A stretch of 32,000 nucleotides of DNA, taken from contig JACRAZ010000064.1 of NCBI GenBank assembly GCA_016213205.1, positions 1 to 32,000 of the forward strand, read 5' to 3'. The position numbers and the translations under genes are program-made. The notes beneath the pieces are model-generated. The model made no database searches and had not been told where the DNA came from. It saw only the letters and a list, made by a program, of their open reading frames with translations. Shown piece after piece: positions 510 through 16,613 of this stretch; position 1 is the stretch's first letter; each line of letters starts with the position of its first letter. Source of the DNA: Burkholderiales bacterium. Its GTDB lineage: Bacteria; Pseudomonadota; Gammaproteobacteria; Burkholderiales; Burkholderiaceae_C.

Positions 510-2681
510 TCACGACTTCAGCGACAGCAGTAGCTTGAGCGCCTGAGCCGCGATCGAGTAGAAGAAATCCTTGATCGCTTGCCACCAGCCGCCCTGATCC
601 TCGGCCAACTGGTCGTGGGCGCGCTTGTTGAGGTAGGCGCGGATCGCATCTGCATCGGCTTTGGTCAGCAGATGCCCGAAGCCAACCATTCCGGTTTCCT
701 TGTACACGCCTTCGAGCACGATCTTGTCAAAGGCGGTTTGGGTGGCAGGTGACATGTAGCGCAGATCAGGCAGCATGCTGCCGCTGATCGCCGTGGCTCC
801 GTGGCAGGCGGCGCAGAAGGTGTGGTACTGCTCGTAGCCCTTCTTCAGCGTGGCCTCGTTGGCGGTCTGTGGCTGGGGTGAGAGCTGCCGTGCCGGGCGC
901 TGGAAGGGCGGCAACTGCGCCGTGCCTCCCAGCTTGTAGACCAGCAGGCGGCCACCCGGCCCCTTCTGCGCGAACTGCGCCGCGCCGCCCGCGGCCAGCG
1001 CGAATGCGCCGCCCCAGCCGGCCATGACGGCGACGTACTGTTCGCCATCGACCTGGTAGGTGACCGGCGGCGCGATGATGCCGGTCTGGGTGGGTGTCTC
1101 CCAGAGGGGTGCGCCGCTGTCGGCGCGGTAGGCCGCCAAGCGCCCGTCGGCGGTGCCCTGGAACACCAGGTTGCCTGCGGTGGACAGCACGCCGCCGTTC
1201 CAGGGGCCGGTGTGCTGCACGCGCCAGACTTCCTTCTGCCGCACCGGATCCCAGGCGCTCAGGTGGCCTTTGGCGAGCAGCGCCGCGAGTTTGCGGTCGA
1301 GCACCTGCGGCATGCCTGAGGGCGGCATCGCGGCGACCAGATCAACGCCGGTGTTCCAGGCGTTGGGAACGTACTTGAAACTTTCCGGGTTCTTGTAGAG
1401 CAGCGGCAGGTCCAGCGCCGGGATGTACACCAGGCCCGCCTTGGGGTTGAAGGCCATCGGATGCCAGTTGTGGCCGCCGTAGGGCGAGGGGAAGGTGAGC
1501 TTTTCCTTCTTCCGGTACTGTTCGTCGGCGGTCTCCACCGGCCGGCCGGTGGCCGGGTCGATGTGCGTGGCCCAGTTGACCTTGACGTAGGGCTGCGCCG
1601 AGATGAACTTGCCCGTGGCACGGTCGAGCACGTAGAAAAAGCCGTTCTTGGGCGCCTGCATCAGCACTTTGCGCACTTGGCCGCCGATCGACAGGTCGGC
1701 CAGCATGATGTGCTGGGTGGCCGTGTAGTCCCAGGTCTCGCCGGGCGTGGTCTGGTAGTGCCAGACGTACTCCCCGCTGTCGGGCCTGAGCGCGACGATC
1801 GACGACAGGTAGAGGTTGTCGCCGCCGCCGGGGCTGCGGATGTCGCGGTTCCACGGCGAGCCGTTGCCCACACCAATGTAGAGCAGGTCGAGTTCGGCGT
1901 CGTAGGCCATCGAGTCCCAGACGGTGCCGCCGCCGCCGATCTTCCACCACTCCCCCTTCCAGGTCTGTGCCGCTTTGGTGAGGGCTGCCGAGGCCTGGGG
2001 CTTGGAAGGATCGCCCGGCACGGTATAGAAGCGCCACGCCTGCTGGCCGGTGGCCGCGTCGTAGGCGCTGACGTAGCCGCGCACTCCGAACTCGGCACCG
2101 CCGTTGCCGATCAGGACCTTGCCCTTGACCACGCGCGGTGCGCCGGTGATGGTGTAGGGCTTGTCGCGGTCGATCGTGTTGACCTCCCACGCCGGCTTGC
2201 CGCTGGCAGCGTCGAGCGCCACCAGACGCCCGTCGAGCGTGCCGACGAAGACCTTGCCCTGGTAGACCGCCACGCCGCGGTTAACCACGTCGCAGCAGGC
2301 CTTGACGCCCCAGGACTTGGGGACCTGCGGGTCGTACATCCAGAGCTGCTTGCCGGTGCGCGCATCGATCGCCCACACCACACTCCACGAACCGGTGGTG
2401 TAAATCACGCCATCGACGACGATGGGCGTGGCCTCCAGACCGCGCGTGGTGTTGGTGTCGAAGTACCAGGCCAGGCCGAGGTTCCTGACGTTGCCGTCGT
2501 TGATCTTGGTGAGCGTGCTGAAGCGCTGTTCGTCGTAGGTGCGGCCGTACGAGAGCCAGTTCTGCGGCTCCTTGTCGGCGTTTACGATGCGCGCGGTGTC
2601 GAGGGCCTGCTGGGCGCCTGCGCCAGCGGCGATGAAGGCGGATGAGGCCAAGGCCAGCGCGGGGGCGAGGATCGGTTTCAC
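510..2681 (-). CDS. Quinohemoprotein (type II) PQQ-dependent alcohol dehydrogenase with a C-terminal cytochrome c domain
   Basis: 723-aa ORF with a GTG start at 2681 and AAGGAGA 9 nt upstream.
- Signal peptide: [23 protein letters not shown].
- PQQ-ADH propeller hallmarks: vicinal Cys pair ([12 protein letters not shown]), repeated W-containing blades, catalytic region [14 protein letters not shown].
- C-terminal heme c motif FCAACHG with a downstream Met (ETGMVGFG).
- The length matches quinohemoprotein ADHs of Comamonas/Pseudomonas. Confidence 0.93.
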
Positions 2682-2749
2682 GAGGGCTTGTCTCCTTCTG
2701 GGAATCGATGGGGTGGGGCGTCGGTCGGGCGGCCGGCTTCTTACCAGCC

Positions 2750-3337
2750 TCAGCGCGCCGCGGTCTTGTCGCGCGGGCGGGTCAGGCGCAGCAGCAGCCA
2801 GACGAAGGCGACCACGATCATCGGCACCGGCAGGTACTTCCAGTAGTTGCGCACGCCCACGCGGAACGGGAACACCGAGTGCTCGACCTTGCCGCTGGCC
2901 GGATCCCTGGCGCTGAGCACGCCCACGTACCAGCCAGCCTCGGTGAACCGGTGTTCCAGCGTGAGCGTCCCGCGCGGGTAGCTGCGCGCCGGCAACTCGG
3001 CCAGCAGATTCGAAGCTTGCCCGGCAGCATCGCCCAGATCAGCCAGCGTCGTCTTGGCACCGCGCCCCGAGGTCTCGCGCAGGATGCGGAACTCGACGCT
3101 GCGCTCGCGCAGCACCGGCTGGATGAAGTCCACCACGAAGACCGCGCGCCCGACCTCCGGAATGTCCTCGCAGAACTCCTGGCTCGAGCGGAAGTCCGGC
3201 TGGTAGCCGGCAAAGTGCGCTTGCGCCTCGCCGATGCGCAACACGCACTTGTCGTCCTCCATGGCCATGCCGCCGTGTGCGAGGGCAGCCCCGCAGGCCA
3301 GCGCCGCCAGCGGCGCAGCGATCCAGCGCGCGCTCAT
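2750..3337 (-). CDS. Secreted, C-terminally membrane-anchored protein of unknown function in the pmoD/amoD position. Possibly PmoD-like; homology not established.
   Basis: - The start at 3337 is chosen over 3469. The ATG overlaps the xmoB stop as ATGA (ttcggATGAgc), and a signal peptide follows immediately ([20 protein letters not shown]|HGGMAM).
- 195 aa, with a single C-terminal TM helix ([18 protein letters not shown]).
- The architecture (signal peptide + ~150-aa periplasmic domain + C-terminal TM) and the position after subunit B match PmoD/AmoD.
- I cannot align it to PmoD from memory. Confidence 0.6.
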
Positions 3338-4572
3338 CCGAACAGCGGAATCATCGGGCCGCTGATCTCCACCGCCCAGCGCTTTCCCTGCGCGTCGTAG
3401 AAGAACAGCATGCCGGCGATCACCGCGTCGGGCGAGGTAATCATCGTCGTCATGCGCTGCGTTTCCCACATCGCGTCGTCGGCGTAGATCACGATCTTGC
3501 GCGTCTGGCCGGGCGCGATGGTGGCGTCGCCGTCCACGCGCAGCGCGTCCGGTGCGACCAGATCGTCCGGGTCGCGCGGCTGGGCCTGGAGCACCTTGGC
3601 GTTGACGAAGCGCAGGTTGCCGCTGTTGAACTCGCCCACCGACACCGGGCTCTGGCCGTTGTTGGTGACGTTGAGCTCGATGCGGAAACTGCGGCCCGGA
3701 ATGCGGTAGCGCGCGTCATCCATGCGGACCGTCAGCGGCGAAGGCTCACGCTGCAACTGCGCGGTCTCGATCTTGCCGGTCTGCGGCGGCGTGTTGACCG
3801 GCCAGCGTTCCTGCGCCCAGAAGTAGCCTCCCAGCACCAGCAGCAGCGTGACGGTGAGCGTCAGCATCGCCGCCTTGCGGTCGCGCCCGGTGATCATCTC
3901 GTCGGCGCGGTCATTGCCCAGTTCGACGACGCGGCGGAAGCGGGGCAGCACCAGGGGCGCCTTGCTCAGCCAGTAGCCGAACCAGGCCAGGCCGATCATC
4001 GCCCACAGCGCCGACCATCCCGCAGCATTGGCCAGGCCGTAGCTCTCCAGGTCGATCTCCTGGCCCGTGAGCGTCTTCACGGTGTTGCTGAAGTTCGCCG
4101 CGCTGCCGCCAACTTCGACCCAGATGCCGGGGCCGATGATCGGGCCGGCATCCTTGACGTTGAGCAAGGGGTGGACGTGGTAGCGCCCGGGCGTGCGGGC
4201 CTTCAGTGTGATCACGAAGTCGTACTGCACGCCGGGCTTGAACGAACTGCTGCGGATGCCCGGCGTGCCGTTGATGCGGTTGTCCAGCCGCACAAAGGCC
4301 GGTCCAGGCACGCCGATGTTCAGGAACGCGGTCTGCTGCGCCGAGGGCACGTGCTCTGGCCAGGCATGCGACGGGACGAAGCTGCCCTTGACCACCAGGG
4401 TCTGCCCCACGTCGAGCCGGCGTGCTGACACATCGACATCGAACCAGTGCAGCGTGCGCATGCGAAGCACCGGCTGCTGCGCCTTTTCGCCATGGGCCCA
4501 GGCAGGGCTCGTGAACAGCGTCATGCTGGCCAACCAGCACAGTGCGATCATACGAAACGTTCTTGCGAGCAT
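3334..4572 (-). CDS. pmoB: Copper membrane monooxygenase subunit B (PmoB/AmoB family)
   Basis: 412 aa with the start at ATG 4572, 2 nt after the subunit A stop. The longer ORF to 5145 overlaps subunit A and is rejected.
- Signal peptide ...SPAWA, then HGEKAQQPVLRMRTLHW (compare M. capsulatus PmoB HGEKSQAAFMRMRTIHW).
- HxH copper motif: GRYHVHPLLNV.
- Conserved blocks: GPIIGPG and TLTGQEIDLE, two central TM helices, LLFFYDAQG and a C-terminal PMIPLFG. Confidence 0.96.
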   Translation of the reverse strand: MLARTFRMIALCWLASMTLFTSPAWAHGEKAQQPVLRMRTLHWFDVDVSARRLDVGQTLVVKGSFVPSHAWPEHVPSAQQTAFLNIGVPGPAFVRLDNRINGTPGIRSSSFKPGVQYDFVITLKARTPGRYHVHPLLNVKDAGPIIGPGIWVEVGGSAANFSNTVKTLTGQEIDLESYGLANAAGWSALWAMIGLAWFGYWLSKAPLVLPRFRRVVELGNDRADEMITGRDRKAAMLTLTVTLLLVLGGYFWAQERWPVNTPPQTGKIETAQLQREPSPLTVRMDDARYRIPGRSFRIELNVTNNGQSPVSVGEFNSGNLRFVNAKVLQAQPRDPDDLVAPDALRVDGDATIAPGQTRKIVIYADDAMWETQRMTTMITSPDAVIAGMLFFYDAQGKRWAVEISGPMIPLFG

Positions 4573-4574
4573 GT

Positions 4575-5327
4575 TCACACCGCCTTGCGAAGCCAACCCG
4601 CCTTGACGCCGAGCGAGCCGATCCAGACCCACAGCCAATAGGAAAGGATGGTCAGGAAGCCCGCGAACACCGCCGTCACCGGTGTGACTGCTTCGCCGAA
4701 TGTGCGCAGGGTGCTCCGCTCGATGATGCGCACGTACTCCGGCATCGCCGTGCGTACGTACTGGAAGCCCATGGTGTCGGCCACGGTCAGCAGCGTGCCG
4801 TGCAGTTCCACAGGCACCATGAAGGGCGCCAGGATCGGCCAGTTGAGCGGATAGATCAGCAGGCCCATCAGGAAGCCGCCGAACACCCCGGTGAAGAAGA
4901 AGCTTCGCGTCAGCAAGAGGATGCAGTCGATCATCAGCCCCAGTGCGATGTACGTCGATGGAAAAACCATGTTCATCGGGAAGTTCGCGAAGCCATGGAA
5001 GTTCAGGTAGCGGCTGAGCCAGGCCGCCCCGGTGAGCGCCAGGATGCTGAGCGTCGCCCCCACTGGAATGCGCAGCAGCCGCCAGAAGGCGTAGCCGAAC
5101 ACGCCTGACAAGGTCGACAGGGCCAGCGGCGTGACCAGAGGCCACCAGCGACGATCGCGCCAGTCGATCCAGTAGTCCCAGTCACCGACCAGCAGTGCGA
5201 ACTCGAAACTGAACACTGCGCCGAGCAGCAGGACAAACAGCGGGATGATGACCCAGTCGAGTTGGGCATCGACGCGCCGGGCCTCCGCGGGGGTCAGCGG
5301 CTGGTCGGGATGGGGGAGGGCGGTCAT
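4575..5327 (-). CDS. pmoA: Copper membrane monooxygenase subunit A (PmoA/AmoA family)
   Basis: 250 aa, with GGAGA 6 nt upstream of the ATG. Full-length resemblance to PmoA:
- GDWDYWIDWRDRRWWP (compare GDWDFWSDWKDRRLW)
- YPLNWPILAPFMVPVE
- YVRTAMPEYVRIIERSTLRTFG (compare [22 protein letters not shown]). Confidence 0.96.
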   Translation of the reverse strand: MTALPHPDQPLTPAEARRVDAQLDWVIIPLFVLLLGAVFSFEFALLVGDWDYWIDWRDRRWWPLVTPLALSTLSGVFGYAFWRLLRIPVGATLSILALTGAAWLSRYLNFHGFANFPMNMVFPSTYIALGLMIDCILLLTRSFFFTGVFGGFLMGLLIYPLNWPILAPFMVPVELHGTLLTVADTMGFQYVRTAMPEYVRIIERSTLRTFGEAVTPVTAVFAGFLTILSYWLWVWIGSLGVKAGWLRKAV

Positions 5328-5411: not shown

Positions 5412-6206
5412 TCAGGCAGCCTGTGCGGCGCCTTGCGCGGGGCGCGTCAGTTCCATCACGCGCGTCGCGATCTGCGTCAGCAGACCACCGGCGGCGAACG
5501 ACGACCAGCCCAGCATGACGAAGCCCCAGTGGATCGGCGCGGCGAACAGTTCCTCGGCGTAGAAGAAGGTGTGGCCCCACTCGTTGAAGCCGAGGTTGGG
5601 CATGATCATGAACGCGCCCGCGACGATGATCGCGAAGGGCAGCGAGATGCGTCCGCCGAAGTACGGAATGCGCGTGTGCGCGTACGCGAACGAGATGAAT
5701 CCCCACATCACCAGCACCGGCACGCCGAAGTAAAACAGCCCGATGTGCGTGGGGGTGAAGTCGGTGTCGCGAATCGTCACTTGGTGCCACGCGGCATCGG
5801 ATTCCGTATAGATCGACCCGGTGATGTAGAAGATGGTGCCAAACACCAGCAGCATCGACGAAACCACGAACAGCCGTCGCAGTTCCTCGCGGCGCCCGAC
5901 GCGGCTGAAGTCGCGCTCACGCGTGCGCCAAAGCCACACCAGGACGCCAGTGCCGCCGCCGATGACCAGTACCAACTGCGTGTAGAGCAGACGCATCCAG
6001 TAGGCCTGGAACTCGCCGCTGAAGTAATCAAGCCCGTGCGTGAACGCCGTGGTCTCCTGGTAGATGCGGTAGACGAGAAAGACGAAGCACAGCGCCACCA
6101 GGCCTGCGAACACGCGCAGCCACGGCGCGCCGGTGCTCGCCTTGGATGTCGGTACCGCCATCCGCTGCATGCTGCCGGCGCCGGCCGGCCGGGGAATCGC
6201 GCTCAT
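5412..6206 (-). CDS. pmoC: Copper membrane monooxygenase subunit C (PmoC/AmoC family)
   Basis: 264 aa from ATG 6206. The start was chosen because AAGGAGAccgtATG gives a strong SD. The ORF extends to 6260 but has no SD there.
- FSGEFQAYWMRLLYTQ (compare FAPEFETYWMNFLYTE).
- WHQVTIRDTDFTPTH...AYAHTR carries the Asp/His/His ligand block.
- NEWGHTFFYAEELFAAPIHWGF carries the Asn/His/His block (compare [22 protein letters not shown]). Confidence 0.95.
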   Translation of the reverse strand: MSAIPRPAGAGSMQRMAVPTSKASTGAPWLRVFAGLVALCFVFLVYRIYQETTAFTHGLDYFSGEFQAYWMRLLYTQLVLVIGGGTGVLVWLWRTRERDFSRVGRREELRRLFVVSSMLLVFGTIFYITGSIYTESDAAWHQVTIRDTDFTPTHIGLFYFGVPVLVMWGFISFAYAHTRIPYFGGRISLPFAIIVAGAFMIMPNLGFNEWGHTFFYAEELFAAPIHWGFVMLGWSSFAAGGLLTQIATRVMELTRPAQGAAQAA

Positions 6207-6362: not shown

Positions 6363-9074
6363 TCAGGCGTGGAGCCACCCGCGGGCGCGGGCTTCGCGCA
6401 GGGCCCCGGTGCGGTTGCGCACGCCCAGCTTGGCGTACAGGTTGTGCAGATGCCACTTGACGGTGCCTTCGGTCAGCACCAGGCGCATGGCCACGTCGTT
6501 GTTCGACATGCCCTCGGCCAACAAGATCAGGATTTCCATCTCGCGCTCGCTGGCGCGCGCGTCGTCAGCCGCCGGGGCGCCGGCCGATGACGCGCTGGGC
6601 TCCAGGGCGCGCACGATCTGTCCTGCGTGGTTGGCGGCGGAGGTGCCGGCACCGGGCGAGCCAGGGGCGATGGCTGCTCGCAGCAGGGGCACCAGGGCCG
6701 GGCCCTCGTCGACGTACAGACGCTGGTAGCCATGCGCAGCGGCCAGCGCCAGGCTGTCCATCATGGCCAGCGTGGCGGCCGGCTCGTCGCCGGCTGCGTG
6801 CAGCGCGCGTGCGCGCAGCATCTGCATCTCGGCCTGCTTGTAGTTCTGGCCGTTGGCGCGGGCGCGCGCATGGCCGGCGTCGGCCCATCGCAGCGCCGCC
6901 TCGACGCGGCCGTGCGCAAGGTCCAGCCGTGCCCACAGCCGCTCGGCCTTGTCCAGATGCAGGGCCGAACGCGCGCTCTCCGGCTGCAGGCCCACATCGG
7001 CGGCGATGCGCCAGGCGCCGTCGGCGTCACCCGCGTGCAGCAGCAGCAGCGCGCGTTCGGCGGCCATCGTCAGTTGCAGGCGCACGAAGCCGCGCGCGCT
7101 GCCGATGCGTTCGCCCTCGGCGGCCGCGTCGAGCGCGGCCGAGAGGTCGCCGCGCGCTGCCTGCAGGCGCGCCGCGGCGACGTAGCCGGCCACCATCGCA
7201 TCGACCACGCCCTGGTGGGGCAGCAGGGGCAGCGCGGCTTCGGCCTCGTTCGTCGCCTCGGTGAGCAGACCTCGTTCGTACAGCAGCAGGGCGTGCATCG
7301 CGCGCAGCATGGCCACCAGCCCGGTGCGGTCGGCCGCGGGGTCGGCGGGCAGCGCAGCGGCGATCTCGGCCCGCGCATCGCGGTGCCGCCCGGCCTTGAG
7401 CAGGGCCACCGCGCTCACCACGCGAACCCACATCAGCCCGTAGGGCAGGCGCGCACGCTCGAAGGCGAACTGCGCCTCACGAAGTGCCTGCTCGGCCTGG
7501 GCGAAGCGCGAATGGCACTTGTGCGCAAAGCCGAGCACTGAAAACACCGCGCCGCGGTGGAAGGGCTCCTCGTCCGCTGCCTGCTCGAGCCAGCGCTGCG
7601 CGTGGGTCTGCGCCGCGTCGGCATCGTCGCGCAGCGCCGCCATCACCGCACGCACCGACAAGCCGGCGTGGGCCAGAGGCACGCTGTCGGGGCCGGCCTC
7701 GCGCTCGGCGCGGGCCAGGCGGCCCTCGGCTTCGACCCAGCGGCGCAGGAACACCAGCGCCCAGGCCGCGAACAATTGCAGCAGCGCATCGGCGCTGGTG
7801 TCGCGCCTCTCGATCTGCGCCAGCAGTTCGAGATAGGTCTCGTGCCGCCCTTCGGCCTGCACGAGCTGGCGCGCGTAGCCGCACAGGTGAGCGCGCGACT
7901 GCGCCGCGTCGTCGCCGGCCAGTGACAGGCGGATCGCGCGGTAGGGGTCACCATGGGCGTGCCACCAGTGTGCCGCCTCGCGGCGCAGTTGGTTGGCGCC
8001 GCGCCCTTCGCCGGCCAGGCGTGCCAGCGCGCTCTCGGCCAGCAGCGGATGCAGTGCGTAGAGCACCTCGTCGTCGACGCGCGCGCGCGCCTGCGCGATG
8101 CCCAGCGTCCCGGCTTCGGCCAGGGCCTCGCGCGCGCGCGGCACGCCCAGTTGCTCGAGCAGTCTGGGCGTGAACTCGCCCAGCGCGGCCATCGTGAAAA
8201 GTGCTTCCTGGCGTTCGGCCGGTAGGCCCTTGATGAAGCGTTGGTGGATGAAGTCGTTGACCAGCAGATCGGTGCCGGCCACCGGAGACGCATCGCCGCC
8301 GGCCAGGGTCAGCTGAACCAGTGCGGGCCAACCCTCGGTCAGCCCCAGCAGGCGCTGCACCGCAGCGGTGTCGCGCGGGCGCTTCAAGCGCAGTGACAGC
8401 TCGAGCACTTCGTCGGCGCCGAAGCGCAGCTCGTGCTGGGTGATCCAGCGAACGCGGCCGCGCGCGGTGAGCGAGGCGAGGTTCAGGTTGGCGGCGTCGC
8501 GCGTGGTCAGCACCCAGCGCACATGGTCCGGCGTTGCGTGCAACAGGTGGTTGAGCGTGTCCAGGCTGGCCGCGCCGCACAACTCGTGCACGTCGTCGAG
8601 AAAGAGCGTGCGCGGCTTCGGGTCGCGGCGCATCGCGTCGAGAACGGCCAAGGCGCTGGTCTCGGGCGTGACCATGGCGCTGAACGTGCCCGAACCTCCG
8701 GCCGGCATCGGCCGGTCCAGCGCGGCCAGCAGCGACCGCTCGAAGTGGGCCGGGTCGCGCCATGCTGCGTCCAGTGCGAGCCACGCCGAGGCGCCATTGG
8801 CCGGGCTGCCTTCGCGAAACCAACTCGCGGCAAGGGTCGTCTTGCCGAAGCCCAGCGGCGCGGCGACGACGACGATGCGCTCGCCCGGGGCCGGCAAGCT
8901 CAGGTGTCGGCGCGCCACCGTGGCGGCGGCGTCGCGCGGCGCCGTCCACCGGTCAGGCGGGGGAGATTCCTCGTGCAGACCGATAGCCGCCGACGACACG
9001 CGGCGCCGGGTGTTCCTGGTGGTCTTGGGGCGGCTCATCAGCGTCACGCAGGCGGTTCGCATTTCAAGCGACAA
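6363..9074 (-). CDS. Large ATP-binding LuxR-family regulator (LAL / MalT / AlkS type)
   Basis: 903-aa ORF.
- N-terminal NTPase with Walker A (VVAAPLGFGKTTLA) and Walker B-like (LFLDDVHEL).
- Long helical/TPR-like middle region.
- C-terminal LuxR HTH: REMEILILLAEGMSNNDVAMRLVLTEGTVKWHLHNLYAKLGVRNRTGAL.
- The start is uncertain (TTG 9074, ATG 9062 or ATG 9038) and none has a clear SD. Confidence 0.9.
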   Translation of the reverse strand: MSLEMRTACVTLMSRPKTTRNTRRRVSSAAIGLHEESPPPDRWTAPRDAAATVARRHLSLPAPGERIVVVAAPLGFGKTTLAASWFREGSPANGASAWLALDAAWRDPAHFERSLLAALDRPMPAGGSGTFSAMVTPETSALAVLDAMRRDPKPRTLFLDDVHELCGAASLDTLNHLLHATPDHVRWVLTTRDAANLNLASLTARGRVRWITQHELRFGADEVLELSLRLKRPRDTAAVQRLLGLTEGWPALVQLTLAGGDASPVAGTDLLVNDFIHQRFIKGLPAERQEALFTMAALGEFTPRLLEQLGVPRAREALAEAGTLGIAQARARVDDEVLYALHPLLAESALARLAGEGRGANQLRREAAHWWHAHGDPYRAIRLSLAGDDAAQSRAHLCGYARQLVQAEGRHETYLELLAQIERRDTSADALLQLFAAWALVFLRRWVEAEGRLARAEREAGPDSVPLAHAGLSVRAVMAALRDDADAAQTHAQRWLEQAADEEPFHRGAVFSVLGFAHKCHSRFAQAEQALREAQFAFERARLPYGLMWVRVVSAVALLKAGRHRDARAEIAAALPADPAADRTGLVAMLRAMHALLLYERGLLTEATNEAEAALPLLPHQGVVDAMVAGYVAAARLQAARGDLSAALDAAAEGERIGSARGFVRLQLTMAAERALLLLHAGDADGAWRIAADVGLQPESARSALHLDKAERLWARLDLAHGRVEAALRWADAGHARARANGQNYKQAEMQMLRARALHAAGDEPAATLAMMDSLALAAAHGYQRLYVDEGPALVPLLRAAIAPGSPGAGTSAANHAGQIVRALEPSASSAGAPAADDARASEREMEILILLAEGMSNNDVAMRLVLTEGTVKWHLHNLYAKLGVRNRTGALREARARGWLHA

Positions 9075-9277: not shown

Positions 9278-11335
9278 CTAGTGAACGTGGTCGTCCGGCG
9301 GCGGCATCAGCCGCGGCTCTTCGCGCAACAGCTCGCCTTGCCGAAGCAGGAACTGCGCATCGGCCCACTCGGGCGACTCCGACGGCAGCCAGCGCGAGCG
9401 CGCGTAGCCGAAACGGTCGATCAGGAACTCCATGTGATGCGGCGATTCGTCGGCGATGGTCTTGCCGGCATCGGCCAGGGTTCGGCGCAGCAGCAGGTAG
9501 GCGGTGGCGGCGTCAGCCGCGCCATCGACCGGCGCGATGAAGGGCAGCGCGGTGCTTGCCGTCGGCGACCCGGGCAAGGGCACGGCGACGACCTGCACGC
9601 TGCGCTCGGCCAGGCGGGCTTGCCACTTGGCCAACCGCAGCAACCTGCGCTGCGACGCGGGCAAGGTGTAGAAGACGAGCAATACGACCTGGCCGCGCAG
9701 ATCCTTCAACGAACCGGGACGGCCCTGCGCATCGGTGAAGTCGAAGTTCGGCGCGCCCAGCCAGGGCCGGCCGGGCACCACGCTTGGCGTGAGGATGCGC
9801 GCTTGGAAACCCGAGGAAAACAGGCGCAGGAAGTTGACGATGTCCCAGCGGTCCTCGGCCGACGTGGTGTGCGCGAAGCCGGGCATTGGCGTGTCAGGCT
9901 TGCCGTCGGTGAGCCAGTGAAAGATGTCGCCCCCGGTGTGCAAGGCGGTGTGCGGCTCGGCCAGATCTGTCGGCGGCTTGGCGAGCCTGGCGGCCAGCGG
10001 GCCGTCGCCGCGCGCTGCCGCGCCGTGGCAGTCGGCGCAGTGGCGGCGATACAGCGCGATGCCGCGTGTGATCGATACAGCGTCGTAGGGCACCTCACTG
10101 CGAAGATAGGTGCGCGGCCAGGCCGGCACCGACAGGGCCCAGATCAGCGCACAGGCCGAGGCCAGCGCCAAGGCCGCGCCGGCGCAGGCGCGCCACGGCG
10201 CCGCGGGCCGGCGCATGACCACGGCCGTCCAGTCGCGGGCGCCGAGCGCCAGCGCCACCACCAGGCCTGCCACGCCCAGCCACAACCACAGCGCGACGCC
10301 GGGTTGGCCCCAGGTGGCGGCCAGCGATACGCGAAACGGCAGCGGCCACACCTTCACGTCATGCGCCGCAGGGATGGTGCCGGCCGCATTCGCCGCTGCC
10401 CACAGCAGGAAGGCCACCACCAGCGCTTCGGTCCGCACGCTGCGGTGCGCGCCTTGCCACGGCGCGGCGTCGCGGTTGTTCAGTGCCGGCACCCAGCGCC
10501 AGCGTACGGCGGCAGCCAGCCAAAGCACCGGTAGCAGCAGCGCCATCTTCAGCAGCACCCAGCCGCCGAAGCGGGTGGACAGCAGCGGCGCGACAAAACC
10601 CTCGATCACGGTCGAGGCGCCTGCCACCCAATCGTCGGCGCGCGCCGGCCACTCAGTGGGCGCGCCCAGCAGCAGATAGCTCATCGCCACGCCGCTGGCG
10701 ACGACGGTCGCCACGCCGAGCGTGGCCAAGCCGGAGAAGCGCCGCAGCAGGTCAGCCATCCACTGCCGGTAAAGGGCGTCAGTACCCGCGGCGGCAGCGC
10801 GCGCCGAGCCGAACGCCAGCCAGGGGAGGGCGCCGGCCCACACTCCGGCGGCCAGCAGGTGGGCCGCCGCCGCAGTGAGCGCCATTTCGGTGGGGTCGAC
10901 CGCCGCGCCGTGGCCCGACCAGGCCGCCACGCACAGAACGAAGGCCGCCAGCGCCCAGGCCGCGAGCGCTTCGGCGCGCAGGTGCGGCGCCGCTCGGCGC
11001 CGCCACAACAGCAGGCCGAGCAGCAGCACAGCCGCTGCCAGACGCATCTGCCAGACGGCGCCGAAGCGCGTGCGCTCGATCACGTGGCGCCACTCGGCCC
11101 ATTCCCAGGCCGCTGCGGGCCGGCCGCTCACGGCCGCCGCCTGGAGCCCCAGCGCAGCGAACGACAACACGATCCCTGCAGCGACCAGGGCGGCGCTGGC
11201 TCTCCACAGCTGGGCACGCCACCGCGCGGCCGGCTCGCCGCCACCGTGCCCACCGATCACGAGCAGGGTCTGAGCGCCGAGCACGGTGCAGGCGCACAGG
11301 GCTGACGCCCAGCGAACGTCGGTCGTGAAGTCCAC
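9278..11335 (-). CDS. copD: CopD-family copper membrane protein fused to a class I cytochrome c and a Sco/thioredoxin-like domain lacking the CxxxC motif
   Basis: 685 aa.
- About 390 aa of polytopic membrane domain, following CopC by 9 nt (typical copCD pairing).
- Then RRHCADCHG...TPMPGF (heme c CxxCH plus an axial Met).
- Then FDFTDAQGRPGSLKDLRGQVVLLVFYTLPASQRRL...HHMEFLIDRFGYARSRW. This follows the Sco1/SenC-thioredoxin layout, but the Cys pair is replaced by LPAS. Confidence 0.85.
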   Translation of the reverse strand: MDFTTDVRWASALCACTVLGAQTLLVIGGHGGGEPAARWRAQLWRASAALVAAGIVLSFAALGLQAAAVSGRPAAAWEWAEWRHVIERTRFGAVWQMRLAAAVLLLGLLLWRRRAAPHLRAEALAAWALAAFVLCVAAWSGHGAAVDPTEMALTAAAAHLLAAGVWAGALPWLAFGSARAAAAGTDALYRQWMADLLRRFSGLATLGVATVVASGVAMSYLLLGAPTEWPARADDWVAGASTVIEGFVAPLLSTRFGGWVLLKMALLLPVLWLAAAVRWRWVPALNNRDAAPWQGAHRSVRTEALVVAFLLWAAANAAGTIPAAHDVKVWPLPFRVSLAATWGQPGVALWLWLGVAGLVVALALGARDWTAVVMRRPAAPWRACAGAALALASACALIWALSVPAWPRTYLRSEVPYDAVSITRGIALYRRHCADCHGAAARGDGPLAARLAKPPTDLAEPHTALHTGGDIFHWLTDGKPDTPMPGFAHTTSAEDRWDIVNFLRLFSSGFQARILTPSVVPGRPWLGAPNFDFTDAQGRPGSLKDLRGQVVLLVFYTLPASQRRLLRLAKWQARLAERSVQVVAVPLPGSPTASTALPFIAPVDGAADAATAYLLLRRTLADAGKTIADESPHHMEFLIDRFGYARSRWLPSESPEWADAQFLLRQGELLREEPRLMPPPDDHVH

Positions 11336-11344
11336 CAGGGCAAG

Positions 11345-11716
11345 TCAGGGCTTGAGGGTGAACGTGTAGCCGTAGTCCACCGTGTGGCCATCGACTGAGA
11401 GAACGCGGTACTTCACCGTGTACTGCCCGGGCGCGAGCGCTGGCAGTTCCAGCACCAGCAGCTTGGGGTCGGCCGCATCCACGGTTGCCCTGGGTGCGTC
11501 AATCGGTTTGGCGTCGCCGTCGCGCTGGATGCTGATCGATGCATAGGCCGGCTCCAGGCGTTCGTTGAACCACAGCCGGATCTGCCGGGGGGCCTTGCTC
11601 AGCACCGCGCGGCGCGGCGGCTCCGACTTGACCAGGGCGGCGTGAGCGCGCGCCTGCCCGCCGGCGACCACTGCGGGCAGCGCGGCCAAGCTCTTGGCAA
11701 AGACACGCCGCCTCAT
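11345..11716 (-). CDS. copC: CopC periplasmic copper-binding protein, Cu(II)-site-only type
   Basis: 123 aa.
- Signal peptide ...GQARA|HAALVKSEP gives an N-terminal His in the mature protein.
- Conserved LSVDGHTV and the CopC-length beta-sandwich pattern.
- No Met anywhere in the mature sequence, so there is no Met-rich Cu(I) site.
- The start overlaps the upstream gene stop as ATGA. Confidence 0.9.
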   Translation of the reverse strand: MRRRVFAKSLAALPAVVAGGQARAHAALVKSEPPRRAVLSKAPRQIRLWFNERLEPAYASISIQRDGDAKPIDAPRATVDAADPKLLVLELPALAPGQYTVKYRVLSVDGHTVDYGYTFTLKP

Positions 11717-12201
11717 GGCTTGACTGCGCCCTTGGCACCGGGTGCGACGACGGTCACGCCGACACGGCGCACGCTCGCCTCGATCGTCTTGTGCCGGGCG
11801 TCCGACCAGTAGACAGCGACCGAGCGCTCGCCAGGCTGCGCCGGCAGGTCGAAGGTGTAGCGGTAGCGCTGGGCGCCGACGCGCTTCAGATCAGCAAGAG
11901 CCGGCATGATCGACACGCCGTCCATGTCGATGTGCAGGTGGATGCCGGTTTCGGCGCCGCTCATCGTCATCTTGCTCAGGTCGGCCGGCGTCTCGAATTC
12001 CACCGTCACCACCGGGCCCACGCGCGCTGCCGGCTGCGGCGAGACGATGCGGATTGGCGGCAGCGCCGCCGGGGAGACGCTTGCTGGCGCCTTGTCGTGC
12101 TGTGGATGGCCCGTGCTGCCTGCCCAGGCGCTGCCCGCCGACATGATCGACAAGCAGGCCGCCAGGGCGAGCCGCGTGCCATCGAACTCCAGGATCTTCA
12201 T
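11713..12201 (-). CDS. Small periplasmic His/Met-containing protein. Possibly DUF4399-like, from memory of that family.
   Basis: The start is set at ATG 12201 (MKILEF...), giving a signal peptide (LSIMSAGSAWA|GSTGHPQH) and 162 aa. The ORF extension to 12387 runs into the porin gene.
- Motifs: IRIVSPQP...VTVEFE, MTMSGAETGIHLHIDMDG, YWSDARHK, VGVTVV.
- Translationally coupled to copC (ATGA). Confidence 0.7.
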   Translation of the reverse strand: MKILEFDGTRLALAACLSIMSAGSAWAGSTGHPQHDKAPASVSPAALPPIRIVSPQPAARVGPVVTVEFETPADLSKMTMSGAETGIHLHIDMDGVSIMPALADLKRVGAQRYRYTFDLPAQPGERSVAVYWSDARHKTIEASVRRVGVTVVAPGAKGAVKP

Positions 12202-12322: not shown

Positions 12323-13660
12323 TCAGAACGAGAAGCTGGCCCCGACGCCGATCGCCCACATTTTGGCCTCGCCCTTGAAGCGGGCAACCGGAGCGCCCAG
12401 CGCGGCGGCAGCGGTGCCGTCGGTGCGCTCGACCGAATTCTTCATCGCGTAGGCGCCATAGACATCCACCCGCATCGACTTGTCGAACTGGTAGCCCAGG
12501 CCCGAACTGACCGTGTGCTTCATCACGACCGGCACCAGCGTGGTCTGGACGATGCGCACCACGTCGCGCGCCACCTCGCCCAGACCACCGGCTTCAGCAG
12601 CAGTCCCCAGGGGAAAGGTGCCGACGCCACGCAGGCCGCCGAAGGTGTTGTTGGGTGTCTTTCGCAGAATGTCGGACGAGTAGTGGTAGCCGGCGCGCAG
12701 CTTCCACAGGCCTGTCGTGTACTGCGCGCCCAGGGCCAACAGCCACTGGTCTCGCCACACGTCGCGGTAAGTGCTGGCCCTGGACCAGCCTTTCCAGACC
12801 AGATCGGCCTCCAGCAGCCAGGGCGAGTGATTGCCTGTGCTGGCCAGGCCCAGGATGACCTCCTCGGGCTGCTCGATCGTGAGGTTCTGGTAGCCGATGC
12901 CGGCCACGCTGGTGTGGACGATATTTTCGAACTTGTAGCGGACCTTGGACTTGTACGCCGCACCGGCGGTCAGATCGCCACCCAGCGCATAGGTGGCGCC
13001 CACGGAAAACCCGCTGCCGAAGGCGTGCGTGCTGCTCGTGGTGCCCCCGAAGTCGCCCAGGGGGATGCCGATGGACGGCCCGGCCGTGCCGAGCTGGCCC
13101 AGGCCGAATCCGGCGGTCAGCGCGGCGCCGACGCTCAGCCGGGGTGTCACCCGGTGCGCGTAGGCCAGGTTGGCATTGAACGAAACCAGCTCGACCACCA
13201 GCGGCAGGCTCGCCGCGCCCGCCACTCCGATCAGCGACACCGGCTGCGCGCGGAAATCGGCCCCCAGTCCCGCGTCGACCTCGATCCCCAAGCCCAGGAC
13301 TCCATTGGGTGACAGCTCGATGGCCATCCCCACGTCGGGCAGGATGTAGTCGTTCGTTCCCGAGGTGCTGATATTCGTTCCCGCGGCGCTGCTCTGCGTG
13401 TTCTTAGAGCTCGCGCCGAGATAGGACGCGCCGACGTTGACGTTGCGCCCCCTGAAGCCGGCCAGGGAAGCCGGATTGCCGAACACGGCCGCGGAGGCCT
13501 CCTGCGGCATCGTGTAGGCCGCGCCGCCCATGCCGCCCGCCGCAGCCTTGTAGCCGAGGTTGGAGTCGGAGCCGACGGCGGTGGCATGGGCCGCGCCGCA
13601 CAGCGCGAGCAGCCCCCCAGCCAGCAGCCACTGTTTGCGCATCACGTCGTTAGCCTTCAT
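12323..13660 (-). CDS. Outer-membrane beta-barrel channel of the FadL/TodX/OmpP1 type for hydrophobic compounds
   Basis: 445 aa, with a strong SD (AGGAGAcagagATG).
- Signal peptide ...LCGAAHA.
- N-terminal hatch-like segment GGMGGAAYTMPQEASAAVFGNPASLAGF (the NPA-x-L motif typical of FadL).
- Alternating beta-strand pattern and a C-terminal ...VGASFSF with terminal Phe.
- The family assignment is by motif and size only. Confidence 0.65.
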   Translation of the reverse strand: MKANDVMRKQWLLAGGLLALCGAAHATAVGSDSNLGYKAAAGGMGGAAYTMPQEASAAVFGNPASLAGFRGRNVNVGASYLGASSKNTQSSAAGTNISTSGTNDYILPDVGMAIELSPNGVLGLGIEVDAGLGADFRAQPVSLIGVAGAASLPLVVELVSFNANLAYAHRVTPRLSVGAALTAGFGLGQLGTAGPSIGIPLGDFGGTTSSTHAFGSGFSVGATYALGGDLTAGAAYKSKVRYKFENIVHTSVAGIGYQNLTIEQPEEVILGLASTGNHSPWLLEADLVWKGWSRASTYRDVWRDQWLLALGAQYTTGLWKLRAGYHYSSDILRKTPNNTFGGLRGVGTFPLGTAAEAGGLGEVARDVVRIVQTTLVPVVMKHTVSSGLGYQFDKSMRVDVYGAYAMKNSVERTDGTAAAALGAPVARFKGEAKMWAIGVGASFSF

Positions 13661-13695
13661 CTCTGTCTCCTGGTCAAGTTCGTGGGTTCATCCAA

Positions 13696-13867: not shown

Positions 13868-15364
13868 TCAGTTGCCCTTGAGCGGACGCGGTGGCGAGTA
13901 GTCTGCGGTGCGGTTGCTGCGCAGGGATGCGTCCCCCTGGCCCAGCCAGAGCTTCATCACCAGCCGCTGCACGACGTTGCCGTAGGGCGGATAGAACAGC
14001 CCCACCGGGAAGAAGCGGTGGCGCTTGAAGACCGTCCGGGCGTGCGACAGCTCGCGAAAGCCCTCCTCGCCGTGGTAGCTGCCCATGCCCGAGTTGCCCA
14101 CGCCTCCGAACGGCGCATCGTGGTTGAGCACGTGCCAACCCCAGTCGTTGATCGTCACGCCGCCGGAATGCGTGCGCTGCAGCACCTGCGCCCGCTGTCC
14201 TGCATCGTGGCCGAAGCAGTACAAGGCCAGTGGGCGCGGGCCCGCATTGACCAGGCCAATCGCTTCGTCCAGCGTGTCGTAGGGCAGCACCGGCAGGATC
14301 GGGCCGAAGATCTCTTCCTTCATCACCCGCATGTCCGGTCGCACGCCAGTCACGACGTGCAGCGGCACCTGGCGCCCCGCCCCGGCCGCAGCGCAGGCCT
14401 CGACCGTGGCCCCCTTGGCGCGGGCGTCGTCAAGCAGGGCCTGGATGCGCGCGGCATGGCGTTCGTTGACCACTGCGGTGTAGTCGTGGTTGCCGGCCAC
14501 GCTGCCGCCGTAGAGGGCCGCGAAGCTCTCCTTGACGGCCGAGACAAATTCTCCGACCTGCTTGCGCGGCACCAGGGCGTAGTCGGGCGCGATGCAGATC
14601 TGGCCGCAGTTGGCGGCCTTGCCATGCGTGATGCGGCGCGCAGCGTCGTGCGGCGAGGCGCCGTGCAGCAGAACCGCGGGCGACTTGCCGCCCAGTTCGA
14701 GCGTCACCGGCGTCAGGTTCTCGGCAGCGGTGCGCATCACGATACGCCCCACCGCCGGAGAACCGGTGAAGACGATGTGGTTGAAGGGCAGGGCGGTGAA
14801 GGCGTTCGGGTCGAGCAGTTCCTCGCCGATGACCGCCACCTGGTGCTCCGGAAACACCTCGCCCAGCATGCGGCGCATCACCGCATTGGTGGCTGGCGTG
14901 AGCTCCGACATCTTGATCATCACCCGGTTGCCGGCAGCCATGGCCGCGGCCAGCGGACCGAGCGTGAGATAGACGGGGAAGTTCCAGGGCACGATCACAC
15001 CGACCACGCCCTTGGGCTGGTAGTGCACGCGCAGGCTGTTGCTGAGGAATAGTAGTTCGGTACTGCGCCGGCTCGGTCTCATCCAGCGCGACAGATGCGA
15101 CAGCGCGTGATTGATCTCCAGCGTCGAGCCGAGCACGTCGAGCATCTTCGACTCGGCTGGCGAGCGGAAGCTGAAATCCTGGCTCATGGCCTCGGCTAGC
15201 ACGTCCTGGTAGCGGTGGAGCTGCGCCTTGAGTTTGCGCAGGTCTTCCCTTCGGCGCGACGCGCTCGGGTAGGGATCGCGGCCGAAAGCTGCCTGCTGGC
15301 TGGAAAGAACGGCGTTCAGATGCGCGGTCATGGCCGCTTGAGGATCGGCCAGTCGGTCGTTCAT
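13868..15364 (-). CDS. NAD(P)+-dependent aldehyde dehydrogenase (ALDH3 / coniferyl-aldehyde dehydrogenase-like)
   Basis: 498 aa from ATG 15364 (GGAGAcagcgATG). The ORF extension to 15538 was rejected because it would overlap the divergent AraC gene start.
- Motifs: VPWNFP, FTGSPAVGR, ELGGKSP (catalytic Glu), ANCGQICIAPDY (catalytic Cys), EEIFGPILP. Confidence 0.93.
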   Translation of the reverse strand: MNDRLADPQAAMTAHLNAVLSSQQAAFGRDPYPSASRRREDLRKLKAQLHRYQDVLAEAMSQDFSFRSPAESKMLDVLGSTLEINHALSHLSRWMRPSRRSTELLFLSNSLRVHYQPKGVVGVIVPWNFPVYLTLGPLAAAMAAGNRVMIKMSELTPATNAVMRRMLGEVFPEHQVAVIGEELLDPNAFTALPFNHIVFTGSPAVGRIVMRTAAENLTPVTLELGGKSPAVLLHGASPHDAARRITHGKAANCGQICIAPDYALVPRKQVGEFVSAVKESFAALYGGSVAGNHDYTAVVNERHAARIQALLDDARAKGATVEACAAAGAGRQVPLHVVTGVRPDMRVMKEEIFGPILPVLPYDTLDEAIGLVNAGPRPLALYCFGHDAGQRAQVLQRTHSGGVTINDWGWHVLNHDAPFGGVGNSGMGSYHGEEGFRELSHARTVFKRHRFFPVGLFYPPYGNVVQRLVMKLWLGQGDASLRSNRTADYSPPRPLKGN

Positions 15365-15527
15365 CGCTGTCTCCGGTGTCGTTTGAACGGCACGCTGGTC
15401 AAGAGCCATGCGCCGTCCTGCTATGAACCGAGTCTGGGGGCCTGGCGTGGTGTCGGCGAGGTTGAAATCTGCCAGGTGGGGGTGAAAATGCGCCAAACTC
15501 TCGTAATCCCCAGGGCAGGCAGCAATC

Positions 15528-16613
15528 ATGACGCGCATCCCGGCACAGCTGTTCGCGAGCTACGAAGGCAGCCGGGATGGCGCGGCGCACAGCCTGCTAG
15601 GCCTTCGGGCACTGATGGCCGAGCTGGCCGATCAAGGCGTGAGCGCAGACCAGGCATTGCGCGGCACCGGCATCGATCCCTGCCAAATGGACGATCCCGC
15701 CTTGCTCATTTCGCCGAACCAGAAGATCGCCGTCTTCGGCAACGCGGGGCGACTGGCGAAGCGCCCCGACCTCGGCCTGCGCGCCGGCGCCCGGCAGCGA
15801 CTGAGCGATTTCGGCGTCTTCGGCTACGCGCTGGCCTCGAGCGCGACCTTCGGGGACGCGCTGGCCCTGGGCATGAAGCACCTCAGGTTGGCTGGGCCCG
15901 TGCTGGAGAAGCGCTTTTGCCTCGTTGGCGATACCGCGTTATTTGAAGGCCGGGACGTGCTGGCGCTGGGGCCGGTGTTGCCACTGGCCACCGAGTTCTG
16001 GTTCAGCTCGATCCTCAAGCTCATCACCTGCGTCATCGAAACGCCCTTTCCCTCGCGGCGACTGCTGCTGCCATACCCCCGGCCGGCCCACGCCGCAGCC
16101 TACGAGCGCATGTTCGGCTGCCCGGCGCAGTTCGACGCCGGCGTCGTCCAGTGGCAGTTCGACGCTGCGGTGCTGCAGGCACCCTGCCCCGAGGCCAACC
16201 CGATCACCGCAGGGATGTGCACCCAGTTCTGCGAACGCATGCTCGACAGCTTGCCACACGAATCGGCGCTCGCTCGCAGCGTGCGCAACGCCTGCCTGGG
16301 CAGCCGCGGCAAGTTCCCGAGCGCGCGCGAAATGGCCGAGCGGCTCGGCTTGTCGGTGCGCACGCTGCATCGGCGACTGACCGAGGAAGGCCAGCACTAC
16401 CAGGGCATCGTCGATGAGGTGCGCAGCGCCTTGGCCATCGAGTTCCTGCGCAACACCACGCTGTCGGTCGAAGAAATCGCCTGCCGCGTCGGCTTCACCG
16501 AAAGCTCGAACTTCCGCAAGGCATTCAGGCGCTGGACCGGGCAGTCACCGGCGCGCTTTCGCGCACCGCAAGGCAATGCGCGCGCGGCGGCCGCACTGGC
16601 GAGGGCGCATTGA
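15528..16613 (+). CDS. AraC-family transcriptional regulator with an N-terminal AraC_binding_2-like ligand domain
   Basis: 361 aa, divergent from the ALDH gene. C-terminal double HTH: SAREMAERLGLSVRTLHRRLTEEGQHYQ...IEFLRNTTLSVEEIACRVGFTESSNFRKAFRRWTGQSPARFR. Confidence 0.9.
   Translation: MTRIPAQLFASYEGSRDGAAHSLLGLRALMAELADQGVSADQALRGTGIDPCQMDDPALLISPNQKIAVFGNAGRLAKRPDLGLRAGARQRLSDFGVFGYALASSATFGDALALGMKHLRLAGPVLEKRFCLVGDTALFEGRDVLALGPVLPLATEFWFSSILKLITCVIETPFPSRRLLLPYPRPAHAAAYERMFGCPAQFDAGVVQWQFDAAVLQAPCPEANPITAGMCTQFCERMLDSLPHESALARSVRNACLGSRGKFPSAREMAERLGLSVRTLHRRLTEEGQHYQGIVDEVRSALAIEFLRNTTLSVEEIACRVGFTESSNFRKAFRRWTGQSPARFRAPQGNARAAAALARAH

Follow-up and report, generated by a model that had tools for sequence, protein, structure and literature searches.

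A copper membrane monooxygenase gene cluster of a Burkholderiales bacterium, most likely for n-alkane oxidation, with a mosaic relationship to two known cluster types

The window analyzed here is a 32,000-nucleotide stretch of DNA (positions 1 to 32,000 of contig JACRAZ010000064.1, assembly GCA_016213205.1) from a Burkholderiales bacterium. It carries a gene cluster organized around XmoCAB, a copper membrane monooxygenase (CuMMO), which an original prediction had read from the letters as a short-chain alkane (or alkene) oxidation island. Eleven co-oriented open reading frames (ORFs) occupy the minus strand between positions 510 and 15364, and an AraC-type gene diverges from them on the plus strand. 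The GC content of the window is 0.64-0.75. On near-identical public contigs, independent gene calling recovers the same eleven products, with lengths of 498, 445, 162, 123, 685, 899, 264, 250, 412, 195 and 723 amino acids (aa), which corroborates the predicted layout, and a GGAGAC ribosome-binding motif lies ahead of most start codons. Gene families were assigned by Pfam, NCBIfam and PDB searches (Table 1), and every family named in the original prediction was confirmed by them. The Prokaryotic Genome Annotation Pipeline (PGAP) names these proteins (MBI5257615 onward) as methane/ammonia monooxygenase A, B and C, pyrroloquinoline quinone (PQQ)-dependent dehydrogenase, coniferyl aldehyde dehydrogenase, outer membrane protein transport protein and CopD family protein.

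Table 1. Genes of the CuMMO cluster in window coordinates, with family evidence and the number of compared CuMMO loci (out of 30) in which a homologue occurs
Feature	Position	Strand	Length (aa)	Family evidence	Loci (of 30)
Type II quinohemoprotein PQQ alcohol dehydrogenase	510..2681	-	723	Pfam PQQ 272 bits, Cytochrome_CBB3	13 (within 10 kb)
PmoD/AmoD-family protein	2750..3337	-	195	phmmer E 2.6e-16 to PmoD 6CPD	29
XmoB, CuMMO subunit B	3334..4572	-	412	Pfam Monooxygenase_B 414 bits; PmoB 3RGB E 6e-109	
XmoA, CuMMO subunit A	4575..5327	-	250	Pfam AMO 264 bits	
XmoC, CuMMO subunit C	5412..6206	-	264	Pfam AmoC 245 bits; aligned to PmoC 3RFR	
MalT/LuxR (LAL, AlkS-class) regulator	6363..9062	-	899	Pfam TPR_MalT 123 bits, GerE 58 bits	7
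CopD-cytochrome c-thioredoxin-fold fusion	9278..11335	-	685	Pfam CopD, Cytochrom_C, AhpC-TSA	24
CopC periplasmic copper-binding protein	11345..11716	-	123	Pfam CopC 80 bits, cut-off 23.3	24
Small secreted His/Met protein	11713..12201	-	162	Divergent DUF4399-like Ig-fold domain (predicted)	21
FadL/TodX-family outer-membrane channel	12323..13660	-	445	Pfam Toluene_X 100.8 bits, cut-off 29.7	
NAD(P)-dependent aldehyde dehydrogenase, cytoplasmic	13868..15364	-	498	Pfam Aldedh 282 bits	16
AraC-family regulator, divergent	15528..16613	+	361	Pfam Arabinose_bd 138 bits, HTH_18 72 bits	

The three monooxygenase subunits are encoded together in the order C-A-B and each matches its own Pfam model, as expected of a CuMMO. 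All copper ligands of the solved particulate methane monooxygenase (pMMO) are conserved in XmoB and XmoC, so that the original XmoCAB call stands. In the alignment to 3RGB, XmoB retains His as the first residue of the cleaved protein (AHGEK) as well as HxH (YHVHP), and in the alignment to 3RFR, XmoC keeps the Asp/His/His of CuC and the Asn/His/His of CuD (ESDAAWH...TPTH, NEWGH...PIHWGF). XmoB exceeds the cut-off of the NCBIfam equivalog AmoB_BACT (527 vs. 336 bits), while XmoA and XmoC stay below those of AmoA_BACT (268.7 vs. 290 bits) and AmoC_BACT (271.2 vs. 319 bits); the enzyme thus falls outside bacterial ammonia monooxygenase (AMO) as defined by all three equivalogs. As XmoB does pass, automatic pipelines can name a non-nitrifier enzyme AmoB. 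Solved AMO and pMMO chains score about equally against the enzyme, and XmoB is ~43% identical to its best methanotroph-derived plasmid match, from Methylomagnum and annotated amoB. XmoA is 76-80% identical to the XmoA of Polaromonas, Rhodoferax and an Acidovorax-labelled metagenome-assembled genome (MAG).

Oxidation beyond the monooxygenase step is represented by two dehydrogenases. The quinohemoprotein alcohol dehydrogenase (QH-ADH) is a single polypeptide in which a signal peptide is followed by a PQQ propeller that contains vicinal Cys-Cys and, at the C-terminus, by a heme c domain (CAACH); its GTG start codon is preceded by GGAGAC. Its best PDB match is 1KV9, the butanol-type ADH IIB of P. 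putida HK5 (819 bits, E 2.2e-245), followed by 1YIQ (768 bits) and 1KB0 (718 bits), all three over the full length, whereas the methanol dehydrogenases (MxaF/XoxF) reach merely 250-360 bits. The protein therefore belongs to the type II quinohemoproteins, as had been proposed, even though PGAP assigns it to a 'methanol/ethanol family'. No extra Asp accompanies its D-Y-T motif, and the lack of this residue marks a Ca-type rather than a lanthanide-type enzyme. As a type II enzyme, the QH-ADH would prefer C2 and longer alcohols. The aldehyde dehydrogenase (ALDH) falls into the coniferyl-aldehyde or ALDH3-like group and has the catalytic Cys and Glu motifs (ELGGKSP, CGQICIAPDY); its best NCBIfam match, MdlD (292 bits), remains under the cut-off.

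Both regulators and the channel conform to the classes originally assigned to them. The large regulator combines TPR_MalT with a C-terminal LuxR helix-turn-helix, as is typical of the MalT/AlkS class, and its AAA match is weak and under the cut-off. It is not MalT itself (NCBIfam MalT 197 bits vs. a cut-off of 537). It shares 54% identity with its counterpart in the Polaromonas xmo cluster, and the best full-length homologue on a plasmid (29% identity over 96% of the length) adjoins alkB-rubredoxin in Methylibium PM1. The AraC regulator carries a PF12625-type ligand-binding domain, an architecture that recurs beside another xmo cluster (locus L041), and it probably controls the neighbouring ALDH gene. 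The FadL/TodX channel scores well over the Pfam gathering score of its family (OMPP1); no PDB sequence match was found for it, and its plasmid matches are weak porins only. Its nearest homologues (49-70% identity) lie inside three CuMMO clusters of a second lineage, together with ALDH, the small protein, CopC and CopD-cytochrome c. More distant homologues occur in Cycloclasticus symbionts and, at 44-48% identity, in Methylococcus, Methylocaldum and Methylomicrobium; those of the Cycloclasticus symbionts and Methylococcus are not found beside CuMMO genes, so that the association is limited to the closer homologues.

Four proteins are likely candidates for copper handling. The protein at the PmoD position is a genuine PmoD homologue, for which no Pfam or NCBIfam model matches. 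Its signal peptide precedes a mature protein that begins with HGG and has a cupredoxin-like domain (two conserved Cys, one His) ahead of a membrane helix at the C-terminus. An alignment over 20 loci shows this helix and the two Cys, in line with the PmoD/AmoD family. CuA formation is confined to PmoD proteins with Cx7MxH (Fisher 2018, PMC6189053). The motif in the window is Cx7QxH and relatives have R or Q at the Met position, which leaves the protein outside the CuA-forming subgroup (Cx7MxHxnC). After predicted cleavage, His-Gly-Gly starts all PmoD-like proteins of the clade (window and loci L001-L029). Because PmoB and CopC both bind copper through a His at the N-terminus, this suggests that the clade's PmoD proteins have a copper site different from that of the studied CuA PmoD.

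CopC likewise has an N-terminal His after cleavage, together with a DGH motif, and both align with its best PDB match 5ICU (E 3.7e-15), the CopC of the methanotroph Methylosinus trichosporium OB3b. Pfam confirms the predicted CopC as well as the CopD-cytochrome c protein, the CopD domain of which scores 41.3 bits against a cut-off of 32.1. Both proteins stay below the corresponding NCBIfam equivalogs (CopC 76 vs. 95 bits; CopD 102 vs. 195 bits). In the CopD fusion, the cytochrome c domain contains CADCH and the C-terminal AhpC/TSA-like domain has zero cysteines, an architecture shared by 49 homologues. The start codon of this gene is uncertain, as PGAP gives 630 aa.

The small secreted protein has no sequence match in Pfam, NCBIfam or PDB. 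Residues M78, T79, M80, H88, H90, M99, D134 and H137 are invariant across its 44 word-indexed homologues, none of which has a Pfam domain and four of which are fused to CopC; the small His/Met periplasmic protein postulated from the letters is thereby substantiated. An AlphaFold2 model shows a beta-sandwich (predicted local distance difference test score 82, core >90). Foldseek returned generic Ig/Fn3 matches only, and PCuAC or cupredoxin identity was rejected on that ground. A profile search that covered 1.84 billion representatives yielded 273 relatives, and 10 out of 50 distant matches were Pfam DUF4399 members. The DUF4399 model (PF14347) itself does not match the protein even at E 10, which places it outside the family proper. 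Because of the ten DUF4399 members among its distant matches, we classify the protein as a predicted divergent DUF4399-like domain, in a sister group without a model of its own.

To grasp whether these genes belong together, the window proteins were compared by tblastn to 30 loci, 29 of which stem from an XmoB scan of species-representative genomes and one from a CopD homologue. The loci span Beta-, Gamma- and Alphaproteobacteria and are hosted by Comamonadaceae (Polaromonas, Rhodoferax, Hydrogenophaga and the Acidovorax-labelled MAG), Nevskiales (Solimonas, Panacagrimonas, Nevskia) and alphaproteobacterial MAGs. The synteny check asked for in the original prediction, as run on CuMMO loci, is positive: the accessory families recur at the frequencies given in Table 1, from nearly all loci for the PmoD-like protein down to a minority for the MalT-like regulator. 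FadL is the exception, being absent from the 28 other loci found via XmoB or CopD-cytochrome c similarity and present only in a near-identical strain (L001). As the same families recur around related CuMMO genes, the juxtaposition is not due to chance. The ancestral core is likely xmoCAB-pmoD-copC-copD(cytochrome c)-small protein, a set that is seen with overlapping genes in L041.

The origin of the remaining arrangement can be read from two sets of identities. XmoCABD (66-77%) and the regulator (54%) of the window are closest to a first cluster type found in Polaromonas and Rhodoferax. FadL (70%), CopC (78%), CopD (66%) and the small protein (62%) have their closest counterparts in a second CuMMO lineage, the XmoCAB of which is 38-45% identical. 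In this second type (L046, L043 and L045), the genes are FadL-xmoCAB-PmoD-like-ALDH-acetyl-CoA hydrolase/transferase-small protein-CopC-CopD-cytochrome c, and L043 additionally carries two MimR-like sigma-54 activators, a methyltransferase and an NnrU gene. Both types coexist in one genome, that of Rhodoferax ferrireducens OTU1 (GCA_003347515.1; L007 and L046). By these comparisons, the window cluster is a mosaic of two CuMMO cluster types that combines in one array two loci that are separate in Rhodoferax OTU1, and its unusual gene order would follow from this joining.

A plasmid without a CuMMO gives a hint of function. Plasmid 2 of Polaromonas JS666 (NC_007950.1, 52-66 kb; L038/L040) encodes the regulator, a CoA ligase, a GMC oxidoreductase, ALDH and QH-ADH without xmoCABD. 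These proteins share 88-95% aa identity with their orthologues in the xmo cluster of Polaromonas AET17H-212, and the regulator is cut by IS6. Just past the ADH gene lie genes for a CYP153A P450, a ferredoxin reductase and a ferredoxin. The P450 is identical to PDB 7ANT, and the next closest match is the alkane hydroxylase CYP153A7; by the title of the report cited for it, the JS666 CYP153 hydroxylates medium-chain n-alkanes. The original prediction had held that homologous clusters lacking the CuMMO would imply chance. Such a relative does exist in this one case, yet the presence of CYP153A in place of the CuMMO argues for a hydrocarbon role rather than for chance. Related CuMMOs are, according to the title of a further study, encoded by alkane-utilising Betaproteobacteria (Rochman 2020, ISME J 14:714).

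Taken together, we estimate a probability of roughly 70% that the cluster serves hydrocarbon oxidation, most likely of n-alkanes, around a CuMMO of the Polaromonas/Rhodoferax/Nevskiales clade. The FadL-type channel would let the hydrophobic substrate in, and XmoCAB, with its intact copper ligands, would hydroxylate it. The periplasmic QH-ADH would convert the alcohol to the aldehyde, with electrons leaving via its own heme c, after which the cytoplasmic ALDH would produce the acid. The PmoD homologue, CopC, the CopD fusion and the DUF4399-like protein may take up copper, perhaps with a reduction step, and supply the enzyme with it, while expression would be set by the MalT/AlkS-class and AraC regulators. 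Relatives reportedly grow on ethane and propane, do not assimilate methane and induce xmoA with propane. The short-chain acyl-CoA transferase and the MimR-like regulators of the second lineage point to C2-C4 substrates, whereas CYP153A, the FadL channel and the ALDH3-like enzyme would fit longer chains too. Gaseous alkanes need no FadL channel. Of the original short-chain alkane island, the hydrocarbon role is thus backed by comparison, the short chain length is only suggested by relatives, and the term island finds no support in composition (see below).

A number of observations weigh against this reading. The host is known only as a MAG, and the proposed pathway rests on sequence comparison. 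The QH-ADH and ALDH are just 49% and 40% identical to the Polaromonas ones, and a good number of the related loci have neither. Co-regulation is putative in view of four gaps of 121-215 nt and the lack of a detectable shared promoter or terminator signal. With Met replaced by Gln, the CuA ligand set of the PmoD homologue is incomplete, so that its chemistry is not transferable from the studied PmoD. Finally, a 2021 paper still lists the CuMMOs of Polaromonas, Rhodoferax and Solimonas as being of unknown function.

Spacing between the genes bears on how many of them form one system. The original prediction mentioned short gaps and several 4-nt overlaps. Two such ATGA overlaps exist, between the small protein and CopC (11713-11716) and between XmoB and PmoD (3334-3337), and gaps are small at XmoA/XmoB (2 nt), CopC/CopD (9 nt), PmoD/ADH (68 nt) and XmoC/XmoA (84 nt). 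The larger gaps, however, measure 207 and 121 nt on either side of fadL, and 215 and 156 nt on either side of the MalT-class regulator gene. In view of gaps of this size, the cluster likely consists of several transcription units. A promoter and terminator scan of positions 1-17000 gave a site count no higher than in shuffles, and scans for Rfam families and tRNAs gave no matches. The 156-nt region upstream of xmoC is AT-richer (GC 0.51); a TGGCAG in the upstream region was rejected by eye as a sigma-54 site because of its wrong spacing. A GC-rich hairpin (GGGGGC...GCCCCC, 5385-5403) lies in the xmoC-xmoA spacer directly 3' of the xmoC stop, and the folding energy of this spacer is not significant (z = -1.42). 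Upstream of fadL, the heptamer CGGTTCA is present twice at a distance of 25 nt (13814-13845, minus strand), and a third copy precedes the ALDH gene (15424-15430, same strand); the related TCGTTCAC is found upstream of the small-protein gene. It is a possible regulator site, but its count across the window is at chance level (5 vs. 3.9) and the repeat is not relied on.

This spacing lends some weight to the idea that only a core of xmoCABD, the copper module and perhaps the regulator forms one system, with ALDH-AraC, FadL and perhaps ADH as independently regulated neighbours. The long gaps flank fadL and the regulator gene, AraC is divergent from the ALDH gene that it probably controls, no promoter motif is common to the genes save the weak CGGTTCA repeat, FadL is missing in the 28 other loci, and many related loci lack ADH and ALDH. 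We nonetheless consider such a restricted system improbable, because homologues of the ALDH (39-43% identity) adjoin xmoC in 16 of the 30 loci and QH-ADH lies at most 10 kb away in 13, in varied orders and lineages, because FadL, ALDH and the copper module stand together in three second-lineage clusters, and because all eleven genes share one orientation. Slightly less improbable, though still unlikely, is that the CuMMO acts on another substrate, i.e., an alkene (by epoxidation), a ketone such as acetone, an aromatic or a terpenoid, as part of another catabolic route. CuMMOs are promiscuous, as exemplified by ethylene-assimilating Haliea and the acetone-oxidising PMO3; moreover, the most familiar substrates of the FadL/TodX family are fatty acids and aromatic hydrocarbons, the ALDH sits in a coniferyl/benzaldehyde-like group, and the second-lineage locus L043 has its MimR-like sigma-54 regulators. 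Genes for epoxide handling, Baeyer-Villiger oxidation, carboxylation or ring cleavage were, however, not found in the window. An enzyme pair leading from alcohol via aldehyde to acid suits terminal alkane oxidation, and the module shared with JS666 serves a CYP153A terminal alkane hydroxylase there.

The automatic names invite two more classical assignments. An ammonia monooxygenase for autotrophic or heterotrophic nitrification, with the dehydrogenases as unrelated neighbours, could account for the XmoB score over the AmoB_BACT cut-off, the PGAP subunit names and the similarity to the amoCAB-amoED-copCD layout of betaproteobacterial ammonia-oxidizing bacteria (beta-AOB). This assignment is nevertheless highly unlikely: XmoA and XmoC miss their equivalog cut-offs, solved AMO and pMMO chains match the enzyme about equally, and neither hao nor the genes for cytochromes c554/cM552 (cycAB) were found in the 32-kb window. 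In addition, ADH, ALDH and alkane-type regulators recur with the clade, and the module is common to a CYP153A alkane hydroxylase system. We give the least credence to a pMMO with the PQQ enzyme as its methanol dehydrogenase. Although the enzyme has the same copper ligands as pMMO, the ADH is listed by PGAP under a 'methanol/ethanol family' and FadL homologues exist in the three methanotroph genera mentioned above, the ADH is a single-chain quinohemoprotein that resembles ADH IIB far more closely than MxaF/XoxF. Genes for mxaI and cytochrome cL are absent from the window, and XmoB is only ~43% identical to its best methanotroph-derived plasmid match. Hydrocarbon oxidation, most likely of n-alkanes, thus remains the preferred interpretation.

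With regard to the flanks, a recent foreign island was rejected on composition: GC3 stays within 0.85-0.91, and tetranucleotide usage correlates at 0.977 with that of the rest of the window. The tRNA scan found none, and the cluster does not qualify as a genomic island. The flank past the ADH gene nevertheless differs in three strains. A 98% identical MAG contig (L001, 13519 onward) diverges 34 nt past the ADH stop (window 476-510) and has a periplasmic-binding-protein gene there instead, while the near-identical contig L030 parts from the window at position 140, from where it runs into a chemoreceptor-like gene. Positions 1-140 of the window contain five tandem ~23-bp units (consensus CGCTGTCCGCCATCACGTGAAA) with a TG-terminated tip; the minus-strand tip reads TG(T)GCGTATTTCAC. 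This looks like a transposon end with multiple transposase-binding sites (Tn7-like or Mu-like), inserted ~370 bp past the ADH stop, the body of which lies outside the window. No family match was found for an Arg/Gly-rich ORF of 155 aa at 33-500 on the minus strand, which is unlikely to be a gene. At the other side, by the AraC gene, a plus-strand signalling block (16650-24787) encodes a receiver-GGDEF diguanylate cyclase and two hybrid kinases, one a histidine kinase with PAS and two receiver domains and the other a CHASE/PAS protein of 1715 aa, with translationally coupled starts; no tie between this block and the CuMMO cluster was seen in other loci. It is followed on the minus strand (24781-32000) by a periplasmic binding protein, an AMP-dependent acyl-CoA synthetase, a FabG-like short-chain dehydrogenase/reductase (SDR), an ABC ATPase, a second binding protein and a putative CaiB-type CoA-transferase. 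The genes of this last block could activate and process the acid product.

Burkholderiales and Nevskiales CuMMOs occur widely in metagenomes, where their substrates are still listed as unknown, and an automatic label of methane/ammonia monooxygenase can skew carbon- and nitrogen-cycle inferences. The occurrence of CYP153A and of xmoCABD beside the same downstream oxidation module is a genomic argument for an alkane substrate. The ~15-kb one-strand version described here holds every recurrent accessory gene and is a practical cassette candidate for heterologous expression. Such expression may reveal which accessory proteins a CuMMO requires, a question that has long held up work on pMMO and AMO. 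More tentatively, the small protein, CopC, the CopD fusion and the non-CuA PmoD might form a dedicated cassette for copper capture, reduction, import and insertion that moves between unrelated CuMMO lineages. We hold this to be possible but doubtful; here, the copper genes sit with a CuMMO just 38-45% identical to that of their closest relatives. If true, the cassette could be the missing accessory set for an active recombinant proteobacterial CuMMO. Equally tentative is that the neighbouring QH-ADH might hand electrons back to the monooxygenase via heme c. The link between the DUF4399-like protein and CopC is a lead for a new periplasmic copper protein, and the portable copper module with this protein, the CopD-cytochrome c fusion and the non-CuA PmoD subgroup are the more novel leads.

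The closest known systems are the Polaromonas/Rhodoferax xmoCABD clusters (L003, L005 and L007), which have XmoC, A, B and D in the same order, the QH-ADH directly downstream, and the MalT-class regulator, ALDH, CopC, CopD-cytochrome c and the small protein nearby. Upstream of its regulator, the window has FadL and the copper module, whereas the copper module of the former clusters is located downstream of the ADH. The ALDH of the window is co-oriented at the far end rather than divergent from xmoC, and the GMC oxidoreductase and CoA ligase are missing. With the second-lineage clusters (L046 on QEII01000281 and the metagenome contigs L043 and L045), the window shares FadL (49-70%), the small protein (48-62%), CopC (68-78%), the CopD-cytochrome c-AhpC/TSA fusion (66%) and ALDH, equally clustered with xmoCAB and a PmoD-like gene. 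These clusters differ by their distant XmoCAB, by the presence of an acetyl-CoA hydrolase/transferase and by the absence of the QH-ADH and the MalT-class regulator.

Extended operons of methanotrophs and nitrifiers follow a comparable plan, with a CuMMO, then a PmoD-family gene, and copC and copD attached: pmoCAB-pmoD-copC-copD-PCuAC in Methylosinus/Methylocystis and amoCAB-amoE-amoD-copCD in beta-AOB (Fisher 2018, PMC6189053). The parallel that had been drawn with amoCAB-orf4-orf5-copCD in another gene order agrees with this source. Compared to these operons, the window has an ADH, an ALDH and an alkane-type regulator, the Cx7QxH variant of PmoD, a CopD extended by cytochrome c and thioredoxin-fold domains, and a different order, with the DUF4399-like protein occupying the place of PCuAC in the methanotroph operons. 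The alk system of P. putida GPo1 (alkBFGHJKL/alkST) obeys the same logic of a membrane hydroxylase, ADH, ALDH, outer-membrane channel and large LuxR/MalT-class activator. Nonetheless, it relies on the diiron AlkB with rubredoxins instead of a CuMMO, the GMC-type AlkJ instead of a PQQ/heme c ADH and the OmpW-family AlkL instead of a FadL channel, and it has an acyl-CoA synthetase that the window cluster lacks. JS666 plasmid 2 shares the regulator (61%), ALDH (41%) and QH-ADH (49%) with the window, but has no copper module, and its hydroxylase is the CYP153A with its ferredoxin reductase and ferredoxin. The actinobacterial HMO/butane monooxygenases (Mycolicibacterium chubuense NBB4 and relatives) are plasmid-borne CuMMOs for short-chain alkane/alkene oxidation from another phylum, with XmoB 26-30% identical and other accessory genes. 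Overall, we regard the window cluster as a new and rearranged addition to the alkane-associated CuMMO clusters known from Betaproteobacteria rather than as a new kind of system.

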